Numbered from the stretch's first letter, positions 4,807 to 6,951 are shown. The stretch is DNA of 64,000 nucleotides from Gammaproteobacteria bacterium (GCA_965116495.1 OZ220696.1:3552001-3616000), one strand, 5' to 3'. Notes: generated by a model not told the origin, from the letters alone. Translations and numbers: made by a program.

Positions 4807-6951
4807 ATGCAGGAATACAATAACCCCATCCTGATCCAGCCTACAGGGGAAATACCCCGCAAAATCGGTATCATCGGCGCCGGCACCATCGGCCCGGACA
4901 TCGGTTATTACCTGAAAAGCACCCTCCCGGATTTAAGCCTGGTCCTGGTTGATATCAGCCGGGAAGCCCTGGAACGGGCTATCGACAGGATCCACGGGTA
5001 TGCACAAAAAGGGCTTGCCAGGGGGAAATTGACCCCCGCGCAGGCCGAACATGTACGGCAGAACCTCAGCGTTTCCCTTGACTATGAGGCCCTGGACGGA
5101 TGCGACTGGGTCGTCGAGGCCGCTACGGAAAATATTGAACTGAAAAAACAGATCTTCTCAAGGGTGGAGGCCATTTGCAGTGAACAGTGCATGATCACCT
5201 CAAATACCAGTTCCATCCCCGCCAGGCTGCTGTTTTCTCACCTGCATCATCCTGGGCGGACTACCGTTACCCATTTTTTTGCGCCGGCCTTCCGCAACCC
5301 GGTGGTCGAGGTGGTCGATTGGGAACAGGCCGATCCGGTATTCCTGCAACAACTGCGCCGGCTGTTTTACCTGACCGGCAAGGTCCCTATGGTCACCCGT
5401 GACGTAGTCTGCTTCATGCTCGACCGCATATTCGACAACTGGTGTAACGAAGCCGGTTATTTACTGTCCGGCGCCACCCCGGCACAAATCGACCACGCAG
5501 CCGGCGATTACGTACACGCCGGCCCGTTCTTTGTATTGAACATGTCCAACGGCAACCCGATCATCATTGAGACCAACTCCCTGCAAGCCGAACTGGAAGG
5601 CCCACACTACCGCCCCGCAGAAATTTTCCAGACAGCACAGGATTGTACTAATTTGGGACACCCACAAATTGCCAATTCACGTGATAATTTGGGACAACCA
5701 CAAATTGGCGGAAATGATAATTTGGGACAACCAGAAATTGCAGACCGGGGATTATTATGGGACGAGTCGGGAAAATGGTTAACAATCAAACCCGGCGAGA
5801 ACGTAGACGTGCCACAGGCTGTAACTGCGGAAATCCGGGACCGTCTGCTGGGGGTCCTGTTTTCGCAGACCGTGGATATCCTGGACCGTGACATCGGTAC
5901 GGCGGCCGACCTGGAACTGGGCTGCCGGCTTGCCTTTGCCTTCAGGCAGGGTCCCCTGGAACTGATGCGGGAACTGGGCGAACAGGAGAGTGAACGGATC
6001 CTGACGAAGTTTACCCGCGCAAAGCCCGGTATGCCCGGCGCGCAACGACCGCTGCGCGCGTACCAGGATTTTTACAGGTTTATCCTGGTCGATGAACTCG
6101 ACGGCGTAATCATCATCACGCTGCGCCGTCCCGAGGCATTGAATGCTTTGCATGATGACATGACCGACGAAATCCTGGCCGTATTGAAGCAATATGAGAA
6201 TGATCCGCAGACTACCGGATTCATCATTACCGGCTATGGCGGCGCGGCGTTCAGCGCGGGCGCCGACATCGGCAGGTTTCCCTCGATGCTGGGAGACAAG
6301 GACCAGAGTATTGATTACGCACGCGTGTGCTCCCGGTTACTGGTCTACCTGGACACCTGCGCGAAGCCGGTTGTCGCTGCGTTGAACGGCATGGCCCTGG
6401 GCGGCGGCCTGGAACTGGTGGTCCGCTGCCACGGCATCGTTGCCGTGGAGGACGCGTGGTTGCAATTTCCGGAGATTACCCTGGGTATTGCGCCGGGTCT
6501 GGGCGGCATGGTGATTCCCTACCGGCGCTGGCCTGCAGCCGCGGCGGCTTTTCATGCCATGCTGCTCAAAGCAAAAAAAATGGCTGCAACCGATGCAGCA
6601 GAGGCGGGGATAATTGACACCTTGGAGGATAACCATGCCGCACTGCTGCCCGGCGCGGTGCGGTTGGTCAGGGAACTCGCGGGTAAACCGCACACGCTTA
6701 CGGATACCCCCATCAATATTTCGCCTCCGGCTGCCGGAAAGGACAAACCACTCAGCTCCACCGGTCAAAAACTGAGCGCCGCGGTGACCGCTATTATCCG
6801 TCGGGCTATCGTTGATGCGGCGGCGGCCGTATCACTGGACGCAGCGCTGGAGGCCGGTTATAGCGCGTTCGGAGACAGCGCCTGCACGGCGGCAGCCCGT
6901 GAGGGCATCGGCGCGTTCATGGAAAAAAGAAAACCCGATTTTACAGATTAG
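4807..6951 (+). CDS. Bifunctional 3-hydroxyacyl-CoA dehydrogenase / enoyl-CoA hydratase (dehydrogenase domain first)
   Basis: GIIGAGTIG, VVEAATEN, SNTSS and THFF motifs, then a crotonase domain (FSAGADI, ALGGGLE, PEITLG). Start probably ATG 4807. Confidence 0.85.
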   Translation: MQEYNNPILIQPTGEIPRKIGIIGAGTIGPDIGYYLKSTLPDLSLVLVDISREALERAIDRIHGYAQKGLARGKLTPAQAEHVRQNLSVSLDYEALDGCDWVVEAATENIELKKQIFSRVEAICSEQCMITSNTSSIPARLLFSHLHHPGRTTVTHFFAPAFRNPVVEVVDWEQADPVFLQQLRRLFYLTGKVPMVTRDVVCFMLDRIFDNWCNEAGYLLSGATPAQIDHAAGDYVHAGPFFVLNMSNGNPIIIETNSLQAELEGPHYRPAEIFQTAQDCTNLGHPQIANSRDNLGQPQIGGNDNLGQPEIADRGLLWDESGKWLTIKPGENVDVPQAVTAEIRDRLLGVLFSQTVDILDRDIGTAADLELGCRLAFAFRQGPLELMRELGEQESERILTKFTRAKPGMPGAQRPLRAYQDFYRFILVDELDGVIIITLRRPEALNALHDDMTDEILAVLKQYENDPQTTGFIITGYGGAAFSAGADIGRFPSMLGDKDQSIDYARVCSRLLVYLDTCAKPVVAALNGMALGGGLELVVRCHGIVAVEDAWLQFPEITLGIAPGLGGMVIPYRRWPAAAAAFHAMLLKAKKMAATDAAEAGIIDTLEDNHAALLPGAVRLVRELAGKPHTLTDTPINISPPAAGKDKPLSSTGQKLSAAVTAIIRRAIVDAAAAVSLDAALEAGYSAFGDSACTAAAREGIGAFMEKRKPDFTD
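5650..5763 (+). repeat. Three tandem copies (plus a decayed fourth) of the AATTTGGGACACCCA(C/T)AAATT repeat inside the dehydrogenase ORF
   Basis: Copies start at 5650, 5686 and 5719 and encode NLGHPQI/NLGQPQI/NLGQPEI. The same motif forms intergenic hairpins elsewhere in the window. Confidence 0.9.

Follow-up and report, generated by a model that had tools for sequence, protein, structure and literature searches.

The window analyzed here, a stretch of 64,000 nt from the genome designated G000, carries on its plus strand a gene for a 714-aa fusion of an N-terminal 3-hydroxyacyl-CoA dehydrogenase and a C-terminal enoyl-CoA hydratase, which an alternative upstream ATG at 4756 would extend to 731 aa. 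The protein comprises the Pfam domains 3HCDH_N, 3HCDH, and ECH_1, its top Foldseek matches are HAD and β-oxidation multifunctional enzymes, and the gene is immediately preceded, on the same strand, by thiolase and CoA-ligase genes; judging from its sequence, the enzyme is of the fatty-acid-oxidation type. The enzyme core is, by its substitution pattern, under purifying selection, with dN/dS values of 0.13-0.20 in nine of ten pairs, the G018 pair having been left out, and the residues S135, H156, E168, E536, and E556, which we take to be the catalytic positions, are invariant in 84 sequences. Contigs of four runs reproduce the stretch in one piece with 0 differences, which excludes a polishing error, the four runs belonging to one study that is perhaps the source of the assembly and thus giving no independent support. 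A CGTC-type repeat is located at 4719-4757, within the 3' end of the adjoining CoA-ligase gene. The host gene contains the following features:

4807-6951, plus strand: host gene, 714-aa dehydrogenase/hydratase fusion
5629-5772, plus strand: variable loop between HYRPAEIF and KWLT, 48 aa long as against 4 aa in distant homologs
5650-5670, plus strand: family-A unit 1, NLGHPQI, with a Gln codon at the usual stop codon position
5686-5706, plus strand: family-A unit 2, NLGQPQI, preceded by a 15-nt spacer
5719-5739, plus strand: family-A unit 3, NLGQPEI, preceded by a 12-nt spacer

The three units, each of 21 nt and all in the same direction, follow one another in the open frame with start-to-start spacings of 36 and 33 nt, as a sequence-only reading of this DNA had described. 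That reading also placed an insertion of about 40 residues between HYRPAEIF and KWLT, and the homologs agree on the position: among the best 120, of which 117 could be parsed and 3 could not, the stretch is a 4-aa turn in 58 of the 117 and comprises 24-73 aa in 59. The estimated size holds for the loop excess as a whole (44 aa, 48 vs 4) and not for the array itself, the three units and two spacers making up 30 of the 44 residues and other loop sequence the remainder.

Units are present in 51 of the 59 long loops, 103 in total and all in one frame, with no unit in another frame or inverted, and the N[LS]G[HQ]PQ core is likewise kept in 51 of the 59. The number of units per loop ranges from 0 to 5; the eight loops without a unit display unrelated sequence, and one of these unit-less long loops (P0023) resembles, at the peptide level, the products of CGTC-type repeats inside other G000 genes. 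In a quick tree calculated with the loop removed (68 rows, 3 skipped), the long-loop proteins form one clade of 55 rows (SH-aLRT 100), and all 55 members keep the long loop. As far as the aligned homologs go, the loop is hypervariable across this clade, with length, unit number, and content varying freely. The AlphaFold2 model of the host protein has a mean pLDDT of 88.5, with residues 284-313 below 50, a low value that is expected anyway for an insert common to few aligned rows; the model suggests that the insert lies in a disordered, floppy loop, the kind of placement that the sequence-only reading had raised. The array is not a notable hairpin (z -1.5).

A six-frame search finds the host gene in 16 of the 23 genomes of the genus that make up the comparison set, and in two of the 16, G032 and G001, the ortholog is broken at or across the loop. 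The G001 ortholog (L012) shows deletions and, in addition, one unit bearing a stop, and that of G032 (L425) displays two frameshifts at the 5' edge of the loop, which could be assembly errors; the G031 ortholog is in pieces, upstream of the loop. A search for shorter homologs, as expected of a split gene or a stop-codon switch at the loop, gave 114 matches, apparently mostly fragments.

The family-A repeat in the genome and the filter of the reading frame

Family-A comprises 194 units in 96 clusters in G000, 52 of the clusters including an inverted pair, and the units are not chance matches, because a position-weight scan of the genome returns 225 sites vs 0 with the reversed matrix. The core, GGACAYCCA, mostly follows TTG or TCA in G000, and the unit codons are rare in this genome (GGA 0.14, CCA 0.07). 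According to gene positions from our own dicodon gene caller (3,826 genes, no annotation used), about 5 of 211 strong copies are located in gene interiors, though interiors account for 78% of the genome; four weak interior matches (C1:1797381, 1895355, 3312428, and 3362944), all with low scores, were set aside as chance resemblances. A single unit forms no notable hairpin (-2.3 kcal/mol, z -0.15; TCA variant -0.1), the GTAG foot is absent from the family-A consensus, and the arms are not notable palindromes. The 55-bp inverted dimers (21 + 13 + 21 nt), which represent the commonest inverted spacing, fold strongly (z -8.9 and -8.0). Inward-facing arms bracket a cargo gene in three cases in G000, with no cargo in common. 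The copies in the window outside the host gene include:

18393-18442, plus strand: intergenic tandem pair, units 18393/18422, spacing 29 nt
34157-34211, no strand assigned: typical intergenic inverted dimer, 21 + 13 + 21 nt, hairpin of -20.8 kcal/mol, z -8.9
36380-36434, no strand assigned: intergenic inverted dimer
47401-47455, no strand assigned: intergenic inverted dimer
54066-54120, plus strand: intergenic tandem pair, units 54066/54100, spacing 34 nt, that is, one unit and a 13-nt spacer
55562-55807, no strand assigned: intergenic cluster, inverted dimer and two more reverse units
58664-58718, no strand assigned: inverted dimer, the reverse unit overlapping a gene end and giving its stop codon (NLGHP-stop frame)

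The spacings of the two tandem pairs are those given by the sequence-only reading, which proposed that selection had kept only frame-preserving expansion in the loop. The genome-wide counts agree: of 44 spacings between same-direction units outside gene interiors, only 8 are divisible by 3, the mode being 34, so that two in-frame spacings alone have a chance of about (8/44)^2 = 0.03. The filter is in fact stronger than was claimed, because the common unit has a stop in the loop frame, the only one of the six frames that it closes. This stop is present in 158 of 188 units outside gene interiors vs a sense codon at the same position in 24 of 24 loop units examined (11 loci), a comparison that is partly circular since open frames were selected. 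As loop units have a sense codon where the common unit has a stop, the founder would have been a minority variant.

Two further arrangements of the repeat are observed in G000 and a relative, including (i) an array at L115:1280-1790 of the relative, in which a 27-nt unit variant is repeated head to tail about 19 times, and (ii) short coiled-coil paralogs interleaved with family-A units at G000:C1:3633000-3670000, comprising four near-identical genes of 186-199 aa and several of 86-179 aa.

The candidate partner transposase, its site, and units in other genes

The sequence-only reading did not recognize the repeat family as one already described; the family is not an orphan, and its relatives are the TIRYT/TIR and REPIN-RAYT systems. 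Pfam PF01797, tried as a route to a partner enzyme in G000 and the genus, yielded family-A flanks at 0 of 27 loci, since the cognate enzyme scores below that model. The partner was found by a home-built profile run over pattern-matched loci, with matches at 5 of 138 genome loci, 1 of 122 metagenome loci, and 0 of 61 viral loci, the viral and metagenome pattern matches being mostly single and chance-like. It is an HUH protein of about 315 aa (314-aa query; open frames mostly 322-365 aa) bracketed by unit arrays, with the signature NH[YF]H-109 aa-YV[DE]LNP and WE at all 17 genus loci, one of them reading NHFH and five YVELNP. Pfam gives no match for this protein, and NCBIfam REP_Tyr_transpos remains below its cutoff (39.9 vs 80 bits). 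By its motifs, HUH-Tyr distance, and length, the partner is a TnpA-Y1 transposase of subclass 2.3, for which Quentin 2018 (Table 1; PMC6006769) gives NHYH, WE, YVDLNP, a median distance of 110, and a length of 325, the features in common being NHYH, WE, YV[DE]LNP, about 110 aa from HUH to Tyr, and about 315-325 aa overall.

Units lie within 400 nt of the transposase gene at 17 of 17 genus loci, with arrays in both orientations, and the protein is present in 41 of 400 genomes drawn from the class. Of 30 subclass 2.3 loci outside the genus, 22 have an inward-facing GGACAYCCA (upstream at 21/30, downstream at 8/25) and eight are devoid of an inward core; outward copies number 0, and the core is concentrated near the gene, with 48 copies in 16.6 kb near vs 8 in 33.2 kb far. 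Judged by this positional link, the subclass 2.3 Y1 transposases have family-A as their terminal repeat. Other Y1 genes have terminal repeats as well: a different Y1 transposase gene at G000:C1:403574-404434 (L027) has its own inverted ends, with about 100-112 genomic copies, and at least two further families of terminal repeats correspond to Y1 gene ends in relatives.

The enzyme is carried by 14 of the 23 genus genomes and is single-copy beside rnf/cysG in 13 of the 14, the exception being G010, with four copies elsewhere. The gene is absent from G000, where its site is empty:

G000:C1:3625539-3625593 (L482:7539-7593): empty transposase site, a single 55-bp inverted dimer between an rnf gene and cysG

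Both sides of this scar dimer match the outer flanks of the G033 site, and the enzyme was probably lost recently from G000 by recombination between the flanking arrays, which would leave one inverted dimer. The scar is 9.5 kb outside the window and 68 kb away from the loop, and a halo of copies surrounds it: 94 of 194 units and 49 of 96 clusters fall within 100 kb, which represents 4.6% of the genome. A halo is also observed in relatives (79/117 in G032 and 49/95 in G034, counted by hand), and the host gene and the transposase gene are 60-140 kb apart where both are on one contig. Another terminal-repeat family in G000 is barely enriched near its own transposase gene, with 8 of 100 in the 100-kb bin, which speaks against such a halo being general.

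In addition to the dehydrogenase, family-A occurs in frame, and in other frames of the unit, in three unrelated genes:

G000:C1:3728889-3730538 (L428, L442-L481): glucose-6-phosphate isomerase (Pgi) gene, the loop of which is a second hotspot
G000:C1:2568245-2569126 (L427, L429-L441): PaaC-like gene, a unit standing in place of 21 conserved coding bases
L180:172-440: DUF3604 gene of a relative, a long in-frame family-A array in the I[WQR]DTH frame, 621 bases seen; the ortholog in the window is at 24243-26159

The Pgi loop segment comprises 59 aa in G000, with a unit in the IWD frame, and 39-41 aa in family outgroups (the 9 that parsed, of 28). Family-A units occupy it in G000, G004, G008, and G018; in G032 the place is taken by a different inverted-repeat dimer and in G001 by a CGTC-type repeat. 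In the PaaC-like gene, the unit swaps in for 21 bases with the length unchanged, the site matching the unit at 20-21 of 21 bases in five and 11-12 of 21 in eight of 13 genus genomes; among 120 homologs the derived state is found in 3, and in a quick tree it falls on two separate branches. At this one locus the unit appears to have replaced coding bases in register, and the same picture would result from insertion followed by deletion between similar ends or from short tracts of inter-lineage recombination.

Origin of the loop array

The account that we consider probable is that the loop units are copies of the end repeat of the subclass 2.3 transposase, likely spread by the enzyme and carried as near-neutral passengers in a tolerant loop that is predicted to be unstructured. 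The loop would have been long already when, early in the clade, a founder unit of the minority stop-free variant entered it; duplications and losses of unit plus spacer would thereafter have survived only with the frame kept, and the genomic pool or inter-lineage recombination probably supplied fresh units. By analogy with HUH enzymes, the 2.3 enzyme most likely nicks and rejoins single-stranded DNA at the end sequence. Units would be seeded mainly near the transposase gene, with intergenic copies persisting as dimers and tandems, and coding copies persisting only where frame and structure allow, to expand and contract thereafter.

The distribution of loop units among genomes bears on the renewal step. 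All 13 genus genomes with both the host gene and the transposase have loop units, and G000 has the scar and the units; enzyme and loop units are both absent from G004 and G005, the G005 site being intact and scarless. The loop variant tracks the common variant of the genome in 10 genomes, taking the TTG form in four where TTG dominates and the TCA/CCA form in six where TTG is nearly absent; G007 and G032 have mixed loops in mixed genomes, and G014 is a misfit, with the TCA form in the loop although TCA is the minority form among its genomic units. As the genomes are related and have DNA in common through recombination, neither co-occurrence nor variant matching counts as an independent test. 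Renewal of loop units by the enzyme is plausible on this evidence.

Under the strongest competing account, which we regard as unlikely, a single ancient insertion was followed by slipped-strand duplication and inter-lineage recombination, and the transposase never acted on the loop again. Such a history would fit the single frame and orientation of all units, the spacers that adjacent units share between genomes, and the mosaic look of the region around the loop, where sequence identity to G015/G016/G033 reaches its maximum, 89-96%, next to the loop, as compared with 62-91% elsewhere. It would also fit a test for DNA-level homogenization at synonymous sites that gave no clear sign of renewal, with 32 of 36 identical vs 26.7 expected, in pairs that are not independent. 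It accords poorly with the two-base Ser-to-Leu variant, which is found on separate branches of the core tree (the quick tree of 68 rows, 3 skipped) and matches the common variant of the respective genomes, and with the unit-less loops of the two enzyme-free genomes, G004 and G005, the scar being absent in G005, where this could be checked.

Co-option of the repeat-derived peptide, for example for binding a partner or for spacing the two catalytic modules, is less credible still and in our judgment improbable. The persistence of the long loop in 55 of 55 clade members and of N[LS]G[HQ]PQ in most long loops, in the very frame in which the common unit runs into a stop, would fit a selected peptide; against it stand the range of 24-73 aa and 0-5 units, the unrelated sequence in eight loops, the pLDDT below 50, and the 4-aa turn found at this place in 58 homologs. 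The "creation of new protein sequence" proposed by the sequence-only reading is not supported in an adaptive sense, for the same reasons, and the loop is best read as a tolerant site and not as a new functional module.

That the gene is decaying or silent, with the insert unselected, or that the insert is an assembly artifact, is very improbable: the broken G001 and G032 orthologs speak for it, and the open 714-aa frame, the low dN/dS, the invariant presumed catalytic positions, the thiolase and CoA-ligase genes upstream on the same strand, and the contigs that reproduce the sequence speak against it. An uptake signal of the Haemophilus or Neisseria type, amassed by biased uptake and recombination, can hardly be believed, since the one copy that replaces coding sequence at unchanged length, as uptake sequences do according to PMC2817400, is set against a distribution that largely refutes it, namely about 5 of 211 strong copies in gene interiors vs the 35-65% in ORFs that the same paper gives for 765-1,892 copies, and half of the copies clustered round the transposase site within 4.6% of the genome.

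Beyond the passenger account, a bolder version can be put forward tentatively, as possible and rather doubtful: the 2.3 enzymes of this genus would have been domesticated at a fixed site, from which they write the 21-nt end nearby (mostly within about 100 kb) and can overwrite look-alike coding sequence in register at unchanged length, more than once at one and the same position. Were it true, REPIN-like systems would gain a third member, one that acts locally and alters housekeeping proteins both by replacement and by insertion.

Relation to known systems and other repeats

Repeats tolerated inside proteins are a known phenomenon, and the points for which the literature searches gave no precedent comprise (i) the link to subclass 2.3, (ii) the local halo, and (iii) one in-register replacement. 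In-frame repeats in metabolic genes, with clusters of 43-82 aa, and the loop-tolerance argument itself have been published (PMC3733652, PMC10969869). As in RPE and the intragenic GTAG and CGTC REPs described in those papers, an intergenic family is found here in frame in unrelated metabolic genes, clusters encode tens of residues, and loops or linkers are proposed as tolerant positions. The RPE likeness drawn by the sequence-only reading is sound in this respect, the segment being repeat-derived, in frame in unrelated conserved genes, and absent from distant homologs. On the other hand, RPE is a palindromic element of about 150 bp with one conserved peptide, whereas the units here are of 21 nt and are read in three frames in different genes. 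Unlike RPE and the REPs, the single unit forms no stable hairpin (z -0.15), the tandem is direct and devoid of an inverted partner, the unit number varies across the clade, and there is a candidate cognate enzyme.

The TIRtrons and TIRYT/TIR families (Di Nocera 2013, PMC3733652) resemble family-A in having a Y1 gene between inward-facing terminal repeats and in the dispersal of the terminal repeat as singles, dimers, and clusters. The majority TIR consensus in that paper is GGGGWSAS, and the core here is GGACAYCCA; the 26 TIRYT examples listed in PMC6006769 fall into subclasses 2.1, 2.2, and 2.5, whereas the present enzyme belongs to 2.3. The text of PMC6006769, which defines the subclasses, states that REP-like flanks were not found for 2.1 and 2.3, and describes 2.3 as a multi-copy spread in Chromatiales and Alteromonadales. 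In contrast, a conserved inward terminal motif is observed here, and the enzyme is mostly single-copy at one site in the genus.

The REPIN-RAYT systems (PMC3116915; bioRxiv 10.1101/2021.07.10.451892) share with family-A (i) a single-copy enzyme at a fixed site, (ii) inverted doublets with a variable spacer that form a hairpin, and (iii) about a hundred clusters, nearly all intergenic, which outlast loss of the enzyme. As described in these sources, REPINs belong to RAYT groups 2 and 3 only and have palindromic arms, a short palindromic arm with a GTAG-type foot being the mark of REP and REPIN sequences. Here neither the foot nor a notably palindromic arm is found, and half of the copies are no more than 100 kb away from the enzyme site; for SBW25, the distribution of doublets agrees with that of a random model (PMC3337134). 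Paper searches on the motif, 2.3 inverted repeats, local spread, and lineage returned nothing beyond the cited papers, and no literature link of subclass 2.3 to a GGACAYCCA end, a local halo, or replacement was found, the searches covering mainly the text of openly accessible papers.

The in-frame array taken alone is one clean example of a known theme, and what followed from it matters more. The paper that defines subclass 2.3 found no flanking structure for these Y1 transposases, and family-A now offers them a candidate DNA substrate. The steep halo round a fixed enzyme gene, together with the empty G000 site, makes REP-type spread testable by genome comparison. The in-register replacement hints at spread by replacement; if general, selfish DNA would alter proteins without insertions or deletions.

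Other repeats populate the same DNA. CGTC-type repeats are found inside nine G000 genes according to our own gene calls. Within the window, heptamer tandem arrays, some with inverted partners, are located at 9223-9343, 13789-13850, 14655-14701, and 16319-16417, one of them in the 3' end of a membrane transporter gene. A large protein whose repeat pattern is RTX-like, with glycine-rich nonapeptides (27 nt) and 264-nt repeats, is encoded at 40700-44100.
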